Virus record (IMG/VR): IMGVR_UViG_3300037471_001740
Location: 18,940-82,939 of that record
Source of the DNA: a virus
Taxonomy: Duplodnaviria; Caudoviricetes
DNA: 64,000 nucleotides
Direction: 5' to 3' (one strand)
Under the pieces are notes generated by a model. The model saw nothing but the letters and a program-made list of their open reading frames with translations. It made no database searches and was not told where the DNA came from. Made by a program: the position numbers and the translations under genes. Positions within the stretch are counted from its first letter, which is position 1, and every line of letters begins with the position of its first letter. Below are positions 4,156 to 53,095 of the stretch, in pieces.

Positions 4156-5637
4156 CTACGGCTCGGCCGACATCACCAGAGCCTCCAGGCGGCGCAACCG
4201 TGCTATCAGACGCTCGTACGCCCGACCTGAGTCGGCACTGCCTGCAGGTTCAGGTTCTGGCGTGTTCAATGGGTCAGCGTTGATCTCCGCGTCGGTTTCT
4301 TCGGGGTCGTCACCCAGATCGCGAATAATCTGATGTCGACTCTTCAGTCGCGCCTCAATCAGCGCAATCAGGCCGTTCGATTCCCGGAGCGGATCGATCA
4401 TCTCGATACGGTTCGGTGACCAGCTCACGTCATAGTCGGGAGACGACGTCAGACCAGCGAGATACGCGGTCGCGGCAAACTGGCCTGCAATCGCTTCGCA
4501 GAACATCGGGATGAAGATCAGCCACAGCTCCTGCAGGAGCATCCGGTTGAACTCCATCTTGCCCATCCGCCCACTGGTGAAATTGACCTGCGAGTAATCG
4601 CCCGTCAGCTGCTCGTACGTCGTGTCGGTGCCAGCCGCAATCGCGCGCAGATCAATTCGCACACCCGCCTCGTAACCATCGTTCGTCGCCGGGGCGGCGA
4701 ACTGCACATCCTCATCGGTTCGCAGGTATTCGATCATGCCTGGCGAAAGAGACTCGACACGCCGTTCGTCTCCGGGACTGGACACGCCAGGAGTGCCTGC
4801 GCGGAACCCGTCGTCGTTAGACTTTACGAACACTGCGAAGCACGCCTCGATTTTTTTGCGAATGCGCTCCGCGTCCTGATATTCATCGAGATCACGTGCA
4901 GCCCAGATGGCCGACGCCAGCCATGGGAAGCCGCGCACCGAATTCGGCCTGTCGATCGCGTCAAAGATATGCAGCACCTCGCTAGCCGGCACGAATCGAC
5001 TCATCATGTTCTTCGGCACCTGCGCGACTTCTCCGGGATGCTGATCGAAGAGCCAGTAACCAGTGCGCTGCCCGATCAGATTGAACTGCACACCAGCCAG
5101 AATGAACCCGCCGTTGACCTCTCCGACCTTCAGCGAGTCGAGATAGTCAATTTCGAGAATCTGGATCTGCAGCGGCACCTCGTAACCATCGCCCGGTCGC
5201 CGACGGCGATACCGGATCAGCACCTCGCCCGATAGCTTCATCGCGCGATAAGCCTTGGCCTGCAGGCCGAAGAAATCAAGCAGGCCGTCAGCGTCGCAGT
5301 ACTTCACCCAACGCTTGAACAGCTTCTGCTGTCGCTTCGATTGGAACTTCGCCTGAATGCCCGTGCCGATGGCATTGGCGACCATGACACGCAACGCACG
5401 CCGGAGGTGCGAATTGTTGACGACAAGATCGCGTGCGCGGTTGCGCAGTGTTGCGAGCGAGGGCATCAGATTCGCCAGCGAGCTGGCACCCGATGTCCGC
5501 CAACCTGCCGCTCGCGGCCCCCGCTTCGCGCCATCGAATCCCCGCACCGCCGCGAGCGTCATACGAGCCCGCATGCGCGCGGCACCGTGGCGAGGCGCGA
5601 TCCATTCGATCGCGCGGTCGAGAAGGTTTGCTTTCAT
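4156..5637 (-). CDS. Portal protein, lambda family
   Basis: LRNRARDLVVNN, SQVNFTSGR motifs; 493 aa. Confidence 0.92.
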   Translation of the reverse strand: MKANLLDRAIEWIAPRHGAARMRARMTLAAVRGFDGAKRGPRAAGWRTSGASSLANLMPSLATLRNRARDLVVNNSHLRRALRVMVANAIGTGIQAKFQSKRQQKLFKRWVKYCDADGLLDFFGLQAKAYRAMKLSGEVLIRYRRRRPGDGYEVPLQIQILEIDYLDSLKVGEVNGGFILAGVQFNLIGQRTGYWLFDQHPGEVAQVPKNMMSRFVPASEVLHIFDAIDRPNSVRGFPWLASAIWAARDLDEYQDAERIRKKIEACFAVFVKSNDDGFRAGTPGVSSPGDERRVESLSPGMIEYLRTDEDVQFAAPATNDGYEAGVRIDLRAIAAGTDTTYEQLTGDYSQVNFTSGRMGKMEFNRMLLQELWLIFIPMFCEAIAGQFAATAYLAGLTSSPDYDVSWSPNRIEMIDPLRESNGLIALIEARLKSRHQIIRDLGDDPEETDAEINADPLNTPEPEPAGSADSGRAYERLIARLRRLEALVMSAEP

Positions 5638-10823: not shown

Positions 10824-11048
10824 CGAAACCCCCTTTATTGTCCCAATGTCCTAATGTCCCAAGGAAAAAGGGTCGTGGGTGTGTGCGCGCGTGCGACATG
10901 CGCACACCTCCGCACGTCGCGCATGTCGCGCACACGCACACTCACGCGAGGGACGCGCTTGGGACGTCGGGACATGGGCCGATAGCGGCGCGCCAAAGCT
11001 GGCGCAATGGCGCGACGAATGCACGCGTGCGGCGCGCTAACGATGCCA

Positions 11049-49493: not shown

Positions 49494-50096
49494 CTACCGA
49501 ACGGTAACGTCAGGCACGATCGACTCGGGCTTGAACGTGACCGCATAGTGATAAACGCTCACGCTCGACGGCTCGATCTGCTCGACGAAGTACGTCACGT
49601 TGTCCGAGAGGCCGAGGAAATGCTTCTTGTAGCTGTTCGGGCCCGTCTTGCATGTCACTGAAAGCTCGCGGCTCTTATCCGCGTTGCCAAGCGAACACAG
49701 GCCTTCGATCGTCATCAGGTAGCGATCCGTGATTCCATTCACGAAGATAATGCGTCGCTCGATCTGGAAATTGTCGGCAGCCTGCGACAGATTGTGCGAC
49801 GCGACGTCGGCGTCGTTGTTGCAAGCGGCCAAGGGAAGCGCACAAGCCAGCGCCAAAAGCATCTTTCTCATCTGTTGCTTCTCCGGTTTGGCGATCGACC
49901 GAATCACCGCCATGAAGCCCTGCTGCAGGTTCGTCTTGCCTATCGCGAGCCAGCGCTTGTCGACATCAGGAAGCGACTCCAGCGCCTCGAGTTCGACGCG
50001 GATGTCCTCGGCCATGTCCTTGATCGTGTTCATCGACGAAATCTCTTCCGGCGACAGGTCGCGATAGCCTTTGATGTGCTTGTGTTGGTTTTCCAT
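49494..50096 (-). CDS. acb2: Acb2-like cyclic-nucleotide sponge fused in frame to a phage lipoprotein (lipoprotein ATG at 49871)
   Basis: MENQHKHIKGYRDLS..MNTIK..RWLAIGKT..QGFMAVIRSIAKP, then MRKMLLALACALPLAAC lipobox. Confidence 0.8.
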   Translation of the reverse strand: MENQHKHIKGYRDLSPEEISSMNTIKDMAEDIRVELEALESLPDVDKRWLAIGKTNLQQGFMAVIRSIAKPEKQQMRKMLLALACALPLAACNNDADVASHNLSQAADNFQIERRIIFVNGITDRYLMTIEGLCSLGNADKSRELSVTCKTGPNSYKKHFLGLSDNVTYFVEQIEPSSVSVYHYAVTFKPESIVPDVTVR

Positions 50097-50119
50097 GCTT
50101 TCTCCTGTGTGTAGATGGA

Positions 50120-50503
50120 TCACAGTGCGAGACGGTGACGGGCCGCCGCGATCCGACTCGTCAAGCTGTCGACAAGGCGACGTGCTCGACGAACTTCCGC
50201 CAGTGCAGGCGGCAGGACTGCCTCGCCCATTGCGTTCTGCTCGCCGCCGATGGGTGCCGGCGAATCCGATACCGAATGCAGGGAGTCCTCCAGCGAGGCG
50301 ACCTCCTTTTCGAGGACGGCCAGGCTGTCGTGCAGGACATGCAGCTCGGCGCCCAGCGAGTCGCGCGGAACTGCCTGCAGAGGCGTCCCCTGCACTACTT
50401 GTCGTTGCGCACGGTACGCATCGAAAGTCGCCTTGTGGTCATTCAAATATTCCATTTGCTCTCCAATGTCCCCATGTGGGGTGAAAACTTGCCGATCATC
50501 CAT
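50120..50503 (-). CDS. Hypothetical coiled-coil protein
   Basis: 127 aa, AGGA RBS. Confidence 0.55.
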   Translation of the reverse strand: MDDRQVFTPHGDIGEQMEYLNDHKATFDAYRAQRQVVQGTPLQAVPRDSLGAELHVLHDSLAVLEKEVASLEDSLHSVSDSPAPIGGEQNAMGEAVLPPALAEVRRARRLVDSLTSRIAAARHRLAL

Positions 50504-50504
50504 C

Positions 50505-51665
50505 TTGGGAAATTCCTAAGATGGCCCTCTCAAAACCCATGGGTTTCCGCTGGGTTATCCAGTGGGTTACCCGTGGGTTTCCCGAATCCTCGCGAACATT
50601 CGCGAGCCCTCCTGCGTTGCACCGCGTCCCCGTGCGTTGCGCCGCGTTGCAGATAAGCGTGCAACGCTGCACCCTTTTCGCTAGCACCCTGCTTGCACAG
50701 TGCTAGCACCTGTCTAGCAAGTGCTTAGCACCTGCTCGCATCTGCTAGTCCCGATCCGGGACACCCTGTCCCGACTTGGGACTAGTCCCGATTAAGGACT
50801 ACTAACGCCTTAACCGTTACCGCACCGTTACCCAACCGTTATCGCCGTGATATCAGCCTGATATCAAGCCTTCACCGAAGGTTTCACCCAAGGTTGGCCC
50901 GAAGGTTATCCTTAAGGCTTCCCCTAACCCTTCACCGAAGGCTTCACCAAAGACATCCTTCGGTGCGGTCGCCGGCGGGAACCGCAGCATGCTTCGGGCA
51001 ATGCTTGGAGCAATGCTCCGAGCATCCGTCACGCTCCCGCCGTGACACCTGTCACGCGTCCGTCCCGTGTCTGTCCCATGGTTGTCCCGCGGGACACGAC
51101 CGGGACATCCGCCGGACACGCCAGCCCTGTCTCTGTGACAGCCGGCGCTTTCTTTACGCCCGCGCTCTGTCTCACGCTCTGTCACAGAACCAGTTACTGA
51201 TTCAGTAACGGTTACTGTTTTGGTAACCGCACAGACTCTGTGCGTAGACGGTGTTGTAGACGCCGGACCGTCTATGCGGCCGTCTCGCTGAAAAAACTGC
51301 TCCCGGGAGCAGTTTTGGTCGACAGGACTTGCTACCAAGGTCGAAAGTCCTTCAGCCTTTGGCCATCCAAGGTGCTTCGAAGGGGCTTCCAAGGCCCTCC
51401 AATGGGGTTGTTGAAATGACAACGGTTGTTGATTCGACAACGGTTGTCGGAATGACAACCCGAGCGGTGCGCTCTGACGGCTGACGCCTCTACCCGGCCA
51501 GGTCTGTTTACCGACGCGTGTCCGCAACGGAGAGGCGTCATGCGTCAGAGGGGTTGCTGAATGAGCAACGGGGGTTGCCGAATCGGCAATTGCTGAATCA
51601 GCAACCCGGCACCGGGTGCCGCCCGCGTGTAATTCGATTACGGGCACGTGGAATCGGATTCCAGC
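50505..51665. repeat. Array of about 25 different iteron-like repeat/dyad cassettes
   Basis: Consecutive distinct motifs phased at 10-12 or 18 bp (see findings). Confidence 0.85.
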
Positions 51666-51667
51666 GT

Positions 51668-51985
51668 TCATCGCGTGATCCAGCGTTCGAAGCGGCCGAT
51701 GCCGAGGCCTTTGCGCACGACCCATTGGCCGCTCACCTTCTCTGCTCCGAGCGCTCTGGCGGTCGCCTGATCCTTCTTCGGTACCGTGAGGGGAATCAAG
51801 TCGGACGCACCGCTCCAAGCTGGCAGCGCGGCTTTGGGCGCTCTCTCGGAGTATTCCTTCTTCGCCAGCCAGTCACGAATAGCGAGATTCGAGTCGTCGG
51901 CAAACCATTGCTTGCGCGTGCGGTCCCAGCGCAGGTTGTATCGCTGCGCAACTTGAACCGTCACCTCGCCTTTTCTCAGCCACAT
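51668..51985 (-). CDS. DUF5710-like protein (two related half-domains)
   Basis: RYNLRWDRTRKQWF and LTVPKKDQATARALGA..QWVV. Confidence 0.55.
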   Translation of the reverse strand: MWLRKGEVTVQVAQRYNLRWDRTRKQWFADDSNLAIRDWLAKKEYSERAPKAALPAWSGASDLIPLTVPKKDQATARALGAEKVSGQWVVRKGLGIGRFERWITR

Positions 51986-51997
51986 CGACCCTTCTCC

Positions 51998-52321
51998 TCA
52001 AATGCGGCGCCCGGCCGCTTTATCCGTCACGTACAGCGCCCGCAATTCATCGGTGATGGCCTTTGCATGGGCTCTGGCGATCGTGTGTGCCGCCAGGTTC
52101 TCAGCGAGCAGCGCGCGGTACTCCTCCATCAGATCCCGGCCTTCCACTTCTGCCTGAGCCTGCGTGGACGTCGCCGGTTTCCGCCTGCCATCCAGGAATG
52201 CGCTGTACACGTTCACCGCGTGTTTCGATCCGCCAGCCACGGACCAGAGATCGCTGCGCCGTTTCTCCAGACTCCGGATTCGCAGCTTCCGATCAATCAC
52301 CCATTCCTTCGTCTCAGACAT
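51998..52321 (-). CDS. Hypothetical protein
   Basis: 107 aa, AGGGGAG RBS. Confidence 0.6.
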   Translation of the reverse strand: MSETKEWVIDRKLRIRSLEKRRSDLWSVAGGSKHAVNVYSAFLDGRRKPATSTQAQAEVEGRDLMEEYRALLAENLAAHTIARAHAKAITDELRALYVTDKAAGRRI

Positions 52322-52880
52322 GGCTCCCCTCTGCTGTTTGCGCTGTAGGTATGGCAGAACATAGATACTGACCGTGTGGCGGTCTAGGCGAGTCTGCGTT
52401 TTCTACCTCCATACGACCGTGTGGCGGTCTAGCAGACTGACCCTCTAGACCGTGTGACGGTCGTATTTTTTTGCTCTCTAGACCGTCCTGCGGGGGTCTA
52501 ACTTCAATTTTTCTAGCGCCTAAAGTGACGTAAGCACGCGGGTTGATGTCGATACCTTCTTTCACATCGAGCTGGCGCCAACTCACGGCATACCATGAAG
52601 CCTTGTTCGGCTTCGCTCCCGCTCTCGTCTCGACGAGCAGACCGAGGTCGATGAGTTCCTTCTTCGCCTTCGTCAGGCCATCACGGCTGTTCCAACCCAG
52701 CGGCTTCAAGGCTTTGTCACAGACGACGAGCGAGCCGTTATTCCGGCCGTTGTACTGAAGGAGAACGTCAAACAGGAGGGCGCGCGCCCTATGAGAGGCT
52801 TCGCGGAAGGAAGGATGATTCATTACCCAGAAGGGGATGCCGACAAAGCGTTCGGTGGTCTTGGTCTTCCTCTCCTTCAT
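52314..52880 (-). CDS. wHTH replication initiator-like protein
   Basis: FVGIPFWVMNHPSF..ARALLFDV..YNGRNNG..AKKELIDLGLL; iterons inside 3' half. Confidence 0.7.
   Translation of the reverse strand: MKERKTKTTERFVGIPFWVMNHPSFREASHRARALLFDVLLQYNGRNNGSLVVCDKALKPLGWNSRDGLTKAKKELIDLGLLVETRAGAKPNKASWYAVSWRQLDVKEGIDINPRAYVTLGARKIEVRPPQDGLESKKIRPSHGLEGQSARPPHGRMEVENADSPRPPHGQYLCSAIPTAQTAEGSHV
52370..52500. repeat. Cognate origin iterons inside initiator gene
   Basis: GACCGTGTGGCGGTCTAG-like dyads at 52370, 52415, 52448, 52481. Confidence 0.7.
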
Positions 52881-53095
52881 TCGACGCCGCCCTTGATGGA
52901 ATCGCGGAATCGCTCGAGCAACACCTCATCTCGAAGCTTTTCGAGTGCCATCACCGTTTCGTATGGCATGCGCTTACCCTTGCGGCCAGTCTTCAGCGCG
53001 GAGATGACCGATTGCCCGATGCGCGATCTCCGCTCGATTTCTGTCTGTGTGAGACCGAGCAAAAAAAGCTCGTGGACTAGTAGATTTGCCCTCAT
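52877..53095 (-). CDS. Cro-like repressor
   Basis: LTQTEIERRSRIGQSVISAL HTH, divergent from cI. Confidence 0.8.
   Translation of the reverse strand: MRANLLVHELFLLGLTQTEIERRSRIGQSVISALKTGRKGKRMPYETVMALEKLRDEVLLERFRDSIKGGVE

Follow-up and report, generated by a model that had tools for sequence, protein, structure and literature searches.

Organization of the repeat array

The window, by which we mean the whole 64,000-nucleotide stretch of DNA that was analyzed, belonged to an 83-kb record of a temperate phage of soil bacteria. Its early operon, which was transcribed from the minus strand, contained a non-coding array of 1.16 kb (50505-51665) between a DUF5710 gene and a downstream gene encoding a 127-aa protein, for which a pattern scan of IMG/VR revealed no relatives. 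The array was composed of about 21 back-to-back cassettes (C1-C21) of short direct repeats or dyads. Locally recurring 6-mers (direct or inverted, within 45 nt) made up 72% of the array, compared with 21.7% in shuffled sequences (n=200, sd 3.7, maximum 33%) and 24% and 20% in equal lengths of the flanking coding DNA. The repeat pattern is far beyond chance. The earlier note had described a back-to-back library of about 25 different cassettes; the array itself was confirmed and all of the re-checked motifs and coordinates were present in the sequence, with the number of cassette types revised to about 21. None of the cassette motifs formed a second cluster when counted across the entire 83-kb record, and a sequence scan of the array showed no promoter-like site inside it. 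Prophage 1 contained a TGTCCC run with a spacing unlike that of the array.

A minus-strand frame that stayed open for 321 codons (50853-51818) extended through much of the array, and its translation contained peptides resembling initiator linkers (VTESVT, LSNQQP), as expected of a real protein gene with repeat-rich linkers. The frame had no Pfam or PHROG match, and the comparison with three related arrays revealed no trace of codon-level selection. The mismatches were distributed equally over the three codon positions (0.20/0.23/0.20, 0.24/0.24/0.27, and 0.35/0.33/0.33), and the alignment gaps were multiples of three in just 5 of 17, 6 of 14, and 5 of 19 cases. The longest open frame inside the arrays varied from 96 to 270 aa, so that the conserved and selected ORF named in the earlier note as a possible objection was not seen. 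The repeat periods of 10 and 11 bp did not fit a reading frame, and the ORF overlapped the DUF5710 gene in another frame. The protein-coding reading is almost certainly wrong and can be regarded as refuted as far as sequence allows. CRISPR-like, tRNA-anticodon-mimic, boxB/nut, integron attC, restriction-site-sink, R-loop (G-skew), and coding readings were also dropped because the 10-11 bp periods, invariant arms, variable loops, and ordinary strand skew did not fit them.

Related arrays and their conservation

Four further full arrays were found in Paraburkholderia-type prophages and soil viral contigs. The array-bearing prophages included that of Paraburkholderia bannensis NBRC 103871. Arrays of this kind were rare. 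Besides the five full ones, a metagenome contig had a near-copy of one of the four relatives, one genome had a truncated array, and a few more instances came from soil contigs. The flanking genes differed on both sides among the five arrays, which indicated that the array is a module of its own. Anti-defence genes (Acb2/Tad1-hairpin, DUF2829-like) often came after the array, which headed a set of accessory and anti-defence genes. The motif cores were kept better than the spacers (58% vs 38% in L003 and 77% vs 65% in G001). In the natural variants, single cassettes were swapped for others, and the spacers drifted.

Cassettes C1-C12 and their counterparts in initiator genes

C1 (50534-50579) contained five copies of TGGGTT (AACCCA on the minus strand) with a spacing of 11-12 bp, four of them at 50540/51/63/74 and an inverted one at 50534. 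A phrog_9474 “replication initiation protein” gene from a Burkholderiaceae genome (L038) also had an AACCCA run at 11 bp in the part that codes for the linker, and a purine-rich block came next there. C2 (50583-50605), read on the minus strand, was a TCGCGAA-NN-TTCGCGA dyad with a GGATTCG tail. The C2 pattern was present in 27 metagenome and 18 viral contigs, and in 26 of 42 newly fetched loci it fell inside an ORF with an ...HQKID... motif. All eight HQKID ORFs with C2 that were tested were phrog_1408/2149/16167 “replication initiation protein” genes, and in the HQKID initiator ORFs the dyad was followed by GGATCAAGGA repeats. C3 (50614-50667) consisted of four copies of GCGTTGC (GCAACG on the minus strand) at 10 bp and one inverted copy. 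In an IMG/VR scan for three GCAACG copies at 10 bp, replication initiators were the commonest named families over the matches (phrog_3729 in 11 ORFs, plus DnaD-like and O-like proteins), and AGAGAAGAG-type blocks often came next.

C4 (50680-50747) was formed by six to seven TGCTAGCA-like units at 10-11 bp and was kept in all arrays; similarity searches found no cognate initiator for it. The clearest counterpart in a cultured phage was that of C5 (50745-50801), which contained three GTCCC-N5-GGGAC dyads. C5 showed 87% identity over 46 nt to a run of six dyads inside the “replication protein O” gene of Burkholderia phage vB_BmuP_KL4. The inter-dyad spacers GGGACACCCTGTCCC and GGGACTAGTCCCGA were common to both, so C5 appeared to be a copy of a KL4-type origin segment instead of a look-alike. 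The KL4 dyad run continued with three copies of CAAAAGAAA, a block that the array did not contain. C6 (50812-50845) had three copies of ACCGTTA (GTAACG on the minus strand) at 11 bp, and the 39 ORFs overlapping three GTAACG copies at 11 bp in IMG/VR included 14 of phrog_9474, 13 of phrog_2509, and nine of the DnaD-like loader family.

C7 (50848-50866) consisted of two copies of TGATATCA at 11 bp and was kept in the other arrays; its sole outside match (L025) was not in an initiator gene but followed one for a NinI-like phosphatase. C8 (50866-50955) was formed by about seven 12-bp units of the CCTTCACCGAAGG type (AAGG units) and matched gene 70 of Gordonia phage Toast weakly (E=4), which is annotated as “replication initiation protein”. 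C9 (50986-51025) was formed by ATGCT/AGCAT units at 12 bp, and similarity searches found no cognate initiator for it. The region 51028-51190 (C10-C12) contained GTCACG/CGTGAC, three GTCCC followed by three GGGAC(A) at 11 bp, and CTGTCAC/GTGACAG units. The GTCCC part weakly matched (E=3) a “DNA replication protein” of Streptococcus satellite Javan462, and 33 nt of the GTGACAG block were identical in the L003 array. When the chunk 50960-51192 was searched against 401 genomes, the best two candidates per genome were mainly chance matches of G+C-rich spacer to host genes, and C9-C12 were therefore counted as cassettes without a cognate initiator gene.

Cassettes C13-C21

C13 (51193-51227) contained two GTTAC-N7-GTAAC dyads at 18 bp. 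Pfam Phage_rep_O genes (E 1e-26 to 1e-28) with six to ten copies of the same dyad were present in two Burkholderiaceae genomes (L018/L310 and L036/L309) and in L319, and the dyad also occurred in the O gene of Brevibacillus phage Jimmer. C14 (51229-51286) was a GCACAGA-C-TCTGTGC dyad followed by two GTAGACG copies and inverted CGTCTA/CGTCTC. Its TAGACGG was one base off the TAGACCG half-site of the iterons of the window phage itself, and similarity searches found no cognate initiator. C15 (51293-51316) was a perfect 24-bp palindrome flanked by A6 and T4. It appeared terminator-like because its minus-strand reading gave a G+C-rich hairpin followed by T6. The palindrome was not kept in the other arrays and was not listed by the sequence scan of the array, probably since the stem runs into the T run.

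C16 (51317-51355) was an AGGACTT-GCTACCAAGGTCGA-AAGTCCT element. Three genomes (L019-L021) had a 93% match to it in phrog_16167 “replication initiation protein” genes, where it came directly after the winged-helix domain. The 20-nt core of C16 was identical in three arrays. C17 (51361-51396), with CCAAGG/CGAAGG units at 11 bp, matched GAAGGGGCTTC repeats inside phrog_1701 “DnaD-like helicase loader” or initiator genes (L022 and L024); it was less sure as an iteron because those repeats fell in the part coding for the N-terminal domain, not the linker. C18 (51406-51459) contained three GGTTGT-N6-GACAAC dyads (GTTGT-N7-ACAAC) at exactly 18 bp. The scan of IMG/VR with this pattern recovered arrays and, in addition, three ORFs (L159, L160, and L163) with six to eight dyads coding LSNQQP repeats, which were likened to Phage_rep_O initiators by their N-terminal sequence (PQLENGYTRLANEL...). 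A GTTGTG variant of C18 was found in a Pfam-selected Phage_rep_O gene (L311).

C19 (51472-51550) was an inverted repeat with 20-nt arms (51472-51491 and 51531-51550) and a 39-nt centre. It was found in the arrays of the window, G001, and L110 and was missing from L003, L065, and one soil variant; its centre (51491-51531) recurred in other contexts in soil contigs. C20 (51553-51605) contained three (G)TTGC-N7-GCAA(C) dyads, and this dyad type (AGTTGCCAATTCGGCAACC and variants) formed the iterons of a Phage_rep_O gene in L320 and a two-dyad run in L034. C21 (51608-51662) was composed of three single dyads, GGCACC-G-GGTGCC, GTAAT-TCG-ATTAC, and GGAATC-G-GATTCC. The GTAAT dyad was found again in the L065 and L110 arrays, and similarity searches found no cognate initiator for C21.

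Range of initiator families represented

At least 10 of the about 21 cassettes matched repeat runs inside initiator genes of other phages or prophages, the matches being picked by sequence similarity alone. The matched genes spanned Pfam Phage_rep_O and at least five PHROG initiator families, and no cognate initiator gene was found for about half of the cassettes. The resemblance to the origin repeats of different phage initiator classes that the earlier note had proposed thus held, by sequence, for these 10 or more cassettes, and the motif search against initiator genes placed several of them in different families (Phage_rep_O, phrog_1701, phrog_16167, phrog_9474, and others). Blastn of the array against the phage collection gave no match at the default threshold. 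At E<=10 against 50,697 phage records, three of six distinct phage groups were matched inside replication-initiator genes (KL4 O, Jimmer O, and Toast gp70), compared with none of the 16 records matched by an equal-length control segment in the same collection; searching with chunks of the array added just one weak match. Among 401 Burkholderiaceae genomes, a set centred on a P. bannensis genome, cassette-like matches were found in Phage_rep_O, phrog_1701, phrog_16167, and phrog_9474 initiator genes. Pattern scans with four cassettes recovered initiator genes as the dominant class. An unbiased sample of Phage_rep_O genes (n=12) revealed six iteron specificities, of which GTTAC, GTTGT, and GTTGC were cassettes of this array and GTTCC was found in the array of a relative. 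The repeat runs in the PHROG-annotated genes, like that of KL4, are putative origins, identified as such by their likeness to lambda O, and the runs in the cassettes would be bound by the N-terminal winged-helix domain of the cognate initiator.

Sites for ribbon-helix-helix proteins, Xis/Cox, and repressors typically take the form of phased direct repeats or 17-18-bp dyads as well. The cassettes could accordingly serve repressors, partition, or excision proteins, or their transcript could act as a structured RNA or as an RNA sponge. The half or so of the cassettes for which no initiator gene was mapped and the location of the only outside match of TGATATCA fit such non-initiator sites, but all of the mapped cassettes mapped to initiator genes, and the motifs formed no clusters elsewhere in the 83-kb record. 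An RNA was further disfavored since no Rfam match was obtained at E<=1, and the comparison of the arrays showed invariant dyad arms, variable centres, and no compensatory changes, which is the pattern of a DNA site and not of an RNA helix. Both possibilities taken together seem very unlikely.

Absence of an unwinding block and of the phage's own iterons

In the real origins, the repeats were followed by three to four copies of CAAAAGACA or by AGAGAAGAG/GGATCAAGGA blocks, which are A/T- or purine-rich. The CAAAAGAC word did not occur in any of the five arrays, and AAAAGA words occurred zero times or once. No 40-nt window below 35% G+C was found in the five arrays, where the minimum 40-nt G+C content was 35-42%. 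Of the parts of a functional lambda-type origin, the array thus contained initiator-type repeat runs (sites predicted by sequence), without an A/T- or purine-rich unwinding element right after the repeats and without a cognate initiator in cis. Since every cassette was without the unwinding block of real origins, the sequence speaks more for sequestration than for a hitch-hiking origin that works.

The iterons of the window phage itself were located outside the array at 52370-52490 on the minus strand, as three to four copies of GACCG-N5-CGGTC / TAGACCG. They sat in the 3' half of a gene (52314-52880) for a 188-aa winged-helix initiator-like protein, which showed a weak DnaD-like match at its N-terminus. 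The L003 and L065 relatives likewise had an initiator-like gene with iterons of its own. The iteron motif of the window phage had zero copies in all five arrays, and the iterons of the L003 phage were missing from every array. The anatomy of the array, with repeats only and no unwinding block, would suit an incA/datA-type titration locus, but the sites in such a locus are for the replicon's own initiator and those of the array were heterologous. Overall, the array is very probably a non-coding library in which initiator-binding repeats (iterons) from the replication origins of many different phages are collected, each run being cut before the unwinding element.

Possible function as a multi-specific initiator sponge

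As judged from these sequence features, there is about an even chance that the array acts as a multi-specific initiator sponge, or incompatibility determinant, against rival phages. Superinfection, co-infection, or the co-induction of prophages in a polylysogen would bring a rival with a matching initiator into activity in the same cell. The cassettes would trap the scarce initiator of this rival in dead-end complexes or become handcuffed to it, and the origin of the rival would then fire poorly. The decoy dose would grow with each copy that the array-bearing phage makes of itself, and the initiator of the array phage would escape capture, since the array lacks the iteron type used by that phage. 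Lambda ori fragments on a plasmid of 20-40 copies arrest lambda replication, and binding of O alone is sufficient for the arrest because variants defective in the A/T-rich arm still arrest (PMC4488673). With two to seven sites per specificity, a single-copy prophage would probably have too few sites to titrate, given that the decoy effect published for lambda was obtained with 20-40 copies of a plasmid.

The cassettes, being real initiator-binding repeat types by sequence, could also work as a pirate origin, on which foreign initiators recruit helicase and start replication so that the phage or an unexcised prophage is copied by an active rival. Transcription helps lambda-type origins fire, and the array would be transcribed because of its location in the early operon. 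No initiator or helicase loader was recognisable in the G001 and L110 phages, and an RNase H gene was located directly upstream of the array; the missing initiator fits the pirate origin as well as the sponge. However, both origin parts, the repeats and the unwinding block, are needed for initiation in lambda (PMC4488673), and none of the cassettes kept the A/T- or purine-rich block seen after the repeats in every real origin examined. Together with the initiator-like genes and iterons of the window phage and its L003/L065 relatives, and with the fragility of a replication mode that relies on the presence of a rival, this makes a pirate origin unlikely. The same missing element argues against an invader sensor, in which a foreign initiator on the prophage array would trigger a response such as local in-situ replication, amplification of genes, escape of the prophage, or killing of the host. 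The match of the cassette types to initiator repeats and the adjoining accessory and anti-defence genes would suit such a sensor, but no output module was conserved beside the array, the flanks of the five arrays being different, and there was no promoter-like site within it. We consider a sensor to have only a slight chance of being correct.

Alternatively, repeated rounds of illegitimate recombination at replication modules may have deposited the origin fragments, in which case the array would be a neutral graveyard with no function of its own. The mosaic nature of lambdoid replication modules and the position of the array at their junctions agree with this, as does the finding that at least one cassette (C5) was a literal copy of a real origin segment. 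The fragments, however, came from at least five unrelated initiator families and were trimmed to the repeats, without flanking coding or unwinding sequence. Relative to local transcription, C1-C3 were oriented as in their source genes whereas C5 and C6 were inverted, and simple unequal crossing-over between collinear genomes therefore fails as an explanation. In addition, the motif cores outlasted the spacers across diverged arrays, and more than 1 kb of non-coding DNA was retained in five phages with different neighbours. A neutral origin is thus quite improbable.

Comparison with known systems

The sponge can be set against several known systems. The closest in sequence were the lambdoid origins inside initiator genes (lambda ori in O, Phage_rep_O, and KL4 O), which have the same repeat types and spacing as the array, namely 17-18-bp dyads or 6-7-bp direct repeats phased at 10-12 bp, and in the case of KL4 share the spacers too. 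The array differs from them in being outside any initiator gene, in combining about 21 specificities instead of one with two to seven repeats per type, and in having neither an unwinding block nor the repeat type of the resident phage. P1 incA and cloned plasmid iterons consist of clustered initiator sites, which have no origin activity themselves and reduce initiation at other places through titration or handcuffing. Loci of the P1 incA type bind the initiator of, and regulate, their own replicon, whereas the array excludes the self type, collects foreign types, and would act between replicons. The datA locus of E. coli, a non-coding locus of about 1 kb with initiator boxes, is a sink for DnaA titration or inactivation. 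It resembles the array in this layout, but it is chromosomal, self-regulating, and of a single specificity. Engineered ectopic lambda ori decoys (Valenzuela and Sharan 2015, PMC4488673) use the same mechanism as the one proposed for the array. They are man-made, carry one specificity, and reside on a plasmid of 20-40 copies, whereas the array is natural, multi-specific, and phage-borne. Mimicry of oriT by mobilisable plasmids and RNA anti-CRISPR repeat decoys of phages are further relatives in principle, since a mobile element carries a non-coding copy of the cis site of another to hijack or jam its protein. They are directed at relaxases or Cas proteins with other types of sites and one or two specificities, and do not form a library.

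No paper describing such a multi-cassette array was found in the literature, and the phage-against-phage and anti-defence functions known to us are proteins or small RNAs. If the sponge is real, a purely cis-acting DNA array that disables rivals by origin mimicry would constitute a new class, the concept of plasmid iteron incompatibility would extend to competition between viruses, and the conserved kilobase of non-coding DNA in these phages would be accounted for. With moderate confidence, we suggest that temperate phages carry a heritable, evolving, non-coding library that would jam the initiators of many rivals at once, as a multi-specific weapon between phages made of DNA alone, with a cassette content that records the rivals met. 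Given that its cassettes are short, specific, and modular, the array also serves as a naturally assembled catalogue of the initiator specificities of Burkholderiaceae phages, and it hints at a simple design principle for blocking chosen temperate phages. For a cultured phage, the array makes a concrete prediction in the pairing of KL4 with cassette C5.

Cassette structure and coding potential of the array

The array (window 50505-51665, 1.16 kb) belonged to a temperate phage recorded as an 83-kb IMG/VR provirus, and the whole stretch was present in only one public run, a rhizosphere metagenome. About 21 different cassettes followed one another along it, each built from a short motif repeated two to seven times at 10-12 bp or from a dyad of 17-18 bp recurring every 18 bp. 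Locally recurring 6-mers made up 72% of the array, compared with 21.7% (sd 3.7) in shuffles and 20-24% in the flanking genes. The back-to-back arrangement described in the earlier note, with a separate motif for each cassette, was borne out, although its count of about 25 was too high. The centre of the long inverted repeat (51491-51531, 41 nt) was also found with other flanks in unrelated contigs from two soil metagenomes and may have entered the array as a small repeated or mobile element.

The array lay in an early operon transcribed on the minus strand, whose sole promoter-like site was PR-like (53134-53105); none was found inside the array. Upstream in the direction of transcription were a Cro-like gene (52877-53095), a winged-helix initiator-like gene of 188 aa with a weak DnaD-like N-terminal match (52314-52880, minus strand), a 107-aa gene and a DUF5710 gene of 105 aa (51668-51985). 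Downstream were a 127-aa gene and a fusion of the Acb2/Tad1-hairpin and VG64 domains (49494-50123, minus strand). The 188-aa protein consisted of the winged-helix part and an iteron-coded RPPHG-type tail and lacked the C-terminal domain by which O-like proteins recruit the loader; no loader or helicase gene was evident near it.

According to the earlier note, evidence that the overlapping 321-aa ORF is a conserved, translated protein under codon-level selection would count against its reading. This ORF, on the minus strand, had no family match, substitutions relative to three related arrays were even across codon positions, and two thirds of the gaps in the array alignments broke the frame, so it was rejected as a gene. 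The longest open frames inside the arrays ranged from 96 to 270 aa. A known RNA was rejected as well, since Rfam gave no match for the array at E<=1 and the dyad arms were identical in all copies while their centres varied freely, orientation included, which is the behaviour of protein-binding DNA sites and not of RNA helices.

Cassettes match repeats in replication-initiator genes

By their sequences, the cassettes were shown to be foreign origin-repeat types. With matches picked by similarity alone, a search of the phage collection (E<=10) placed three of six distinct phage groups inside replication-initiator genes, namely "replication protein O" of Burkholderia phage vB_BmuP_KL4 (KL4; E 2e-5), "replication protein O" of Brevibacillus phage Jimmer and gp70 of Gordonia phage Toast, whereas a control segment of equal length from the window phage matched in such genes in 0 of 16 records. 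Cassette-like matches in 401 Burkholderiaceae genomes fell in initiator genes defined by Pfam and PHROGs: Phage_rep_O (loci L018 and L036), phrog_1701 (L022 and L024), phrog_16167 (L019-21) and phrog_9474 (L038). Pattern scans with GCAACG x3 at 10 bp, GTAACG x3 at 11 bp and GTTGT-N7-ACAAC x2 also pointed to initiator genes. The TCGCGAA dyad lay inside an initiator-like ORF in 26 of 42 newly fetched loci, and all eight ORFs tested were phrog_1408, phrog_2149 or phrog_16167.

Across 12 Phage_rep_O genes sampled without bias, the iterons were GGTTxx-N7-xxAACC dyads with six specificities. Three of these (GTTAC, GTTGT and GTTGC) were cassettes C13, C18 and C20 of the window array, and GTTCC occurred in the array of viral contig L110; GTTAT and a G-rich type were absent from all arrays. 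The match of C5 to a six-dyad run in the KL4 O gene included the spacers between dyads, indicating that C5 was copied from an origin segment of this kind. The proposal that the cassettes resemble origins of different initiator classes was thus well supported for 10 cassettes and weakly for two; for about nine no cognate was found.

Two further repeat runs lay outside initiator genes. In locus L025 (G132:C1, ~1495-1550), TGATATCA was repeated three to four times at 11 bp at the 3' end of a NinI-like phosphatase gene, and cassettes of this type may act for another protein. In the neighbouring prophage 1 (10830-10970), an intergenic region contained three TGTCCC/TGTCCT units with a spacing of 8 bp and, at a distance of about 100 bp, inverted GGGAC units; the half-site GTCCCAA resembled C5 variants, but the spacing differed.

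Turnover of cassettes in related arrays

The same kind of array was found in four other places with cassette order largely kept: a prophage of Paraburkholderia bannensis NBRC 103871 (L003/L007), IMG/VR proviruses 3300030516_000153 (G001) and 2681812994_000001 (L065), and viral contig 3300025941_000663 (L110), where the array was longer (~1.75 kb) and partly reordered. Metagenome contig L324 held a G001-like copy. Contigs from three more soil or rhizosphere studies covered parts of the array, and two of them had other letters in place of stretches of it, at 50617-50733 and 51235-51327. The comparison of related prophages proposed in the earlier note revealed turnover of cassette content: TGTAC replaced GTTAC in L003, GTGACGC was present only in G001, L065 and L110, and GGAACG, GGAATTCC and GTTAA were mainly or only in L110. 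Judged by the alignments, the array motifs were shown to be under selection; repeated-motif positions, set from the window sequence alone, were conserved at 58% versus 38% for the rest against L003 and at 77% versus 65% against G001.

Upstream, the arrays were flanked by either the winged-helix and DUF5710 module or cro and RNase H; downstream stood the 127-aa gene, a Bro-N antirepressor, Acb2, or a lipoprotein and a DUF2829-like gene. Since the flanking genes differed on both sides, the array is a mosaic module in its own right. The RNase H gene ended exactly at the array start in G001 (locus L156, 7187-7867) and L110 (2347-2781), and no recognisable O-like initiator, loader or helicase was found in their early operons.

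A truncated array in L016 (G120:C27, 1480-1800), with GATATC, GTAACG, GTCCC/GGGAC, GCAACG x5, ATGCTTG x3 and GCTAGCA, was probably a prophage remnant, lying between a group II intron reverse-transcriptase gene and a tRNA gene. In L017 (G048:C287, 540-1950), single cassettes, including GTTAC-N7-GTAAC x3 (725-780) and GTCCC/GGGAC dyads (1355-1411), were scattered between small ORFs (76 and 90 aa) and not packed; this could be a gene-invaded array, or cassettes used singly.

Missing elements and possible function

All of the real genes examined had, directly after the repeats, a block of three to four CAAAAGACA or runs of AGAGAAGAG or GGATCAAGGA, which correspond to the A/T-rich arm in lambda ori. 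None of the CAAAAGACA, AGAGAAGAG or GGATCAAGGA words and no A/T-rich window occurred in the arrays. Nor did any array contain the iterons that belong to the window phage itself (GACCG-N5-CGGTC, 52370-52490) or to the L003 phage. As far as these searches tell, the arrays were shown to lack both unwinding elements and the self type. Relative to local transcription, C1-C3 were oriented as in their source genes and C5 and C6 were inverted. This mixture counts against simple unequal crossing-over of collinear genomes as the source.

Foreign initiators would be expected to bind the cassettes, and the most economical consequence would be that those of rivals are sequestered or handcuffed there. This would create incompatibility against up to ~20 replicon types, with a decoy dose rising as the array phage replicates. 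Lambda replication is stopped by lambda ori on a 20-40-copy plasmid, and also by origin-defective ori variants that still bind O (PMC4488673). We consider the chances that sequestration is the function of the array to be about evenly balanced; its weak point is the few sites in a single-copy prophage. Chief among the alternatives is a pirate origin, by which the genome would be replicated by a co-infecting phage's initiator. G001 and L110, in which RNase H lies directly upstream and no initiator of their own is seen, fit such an origin, but the unwinding blocks are missing, and lambda initiation requires both iterons and the A/T-rich arm (PMC4488673). A sensor of invaders would be expected to have an output, and none was conserved, while a neutral scar fits poorly with the trimming, mixed orientation and selective conservation of the cassettes.

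Full-text literature searches found no natural array of iterons with many specificities, in agreement with the earlier note; the nearest published item was the engineered lambda decoy, which demonstrates the proposed principle artificially. The established part of the array's description is its sequence identity.

Counter-defence genes beside the arrays

By its gene context, the array module was shown to be mobile and to lie among accessory and anti-defence genes. A DUF2829-like protein (phrog_872) followed the array region beside Acb2 in G001 (L156, 9407-9916) and L110 (~4760-5155). DUF2829 is the fold family to which the anti-Thoeris sponge Tad2 belongs, so the arrays stand at the head of a counter-defence gene cluster. 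Acb2 (91 or 74 aa) and the lipoprotein were consecutive separate genes in G001 and L065; in the window, the Acb2/Tad1-hairpin and VG64-type lipoprotein domains shared one 209-aa ORF (49494-50123), which may have been fused by a small deletion.
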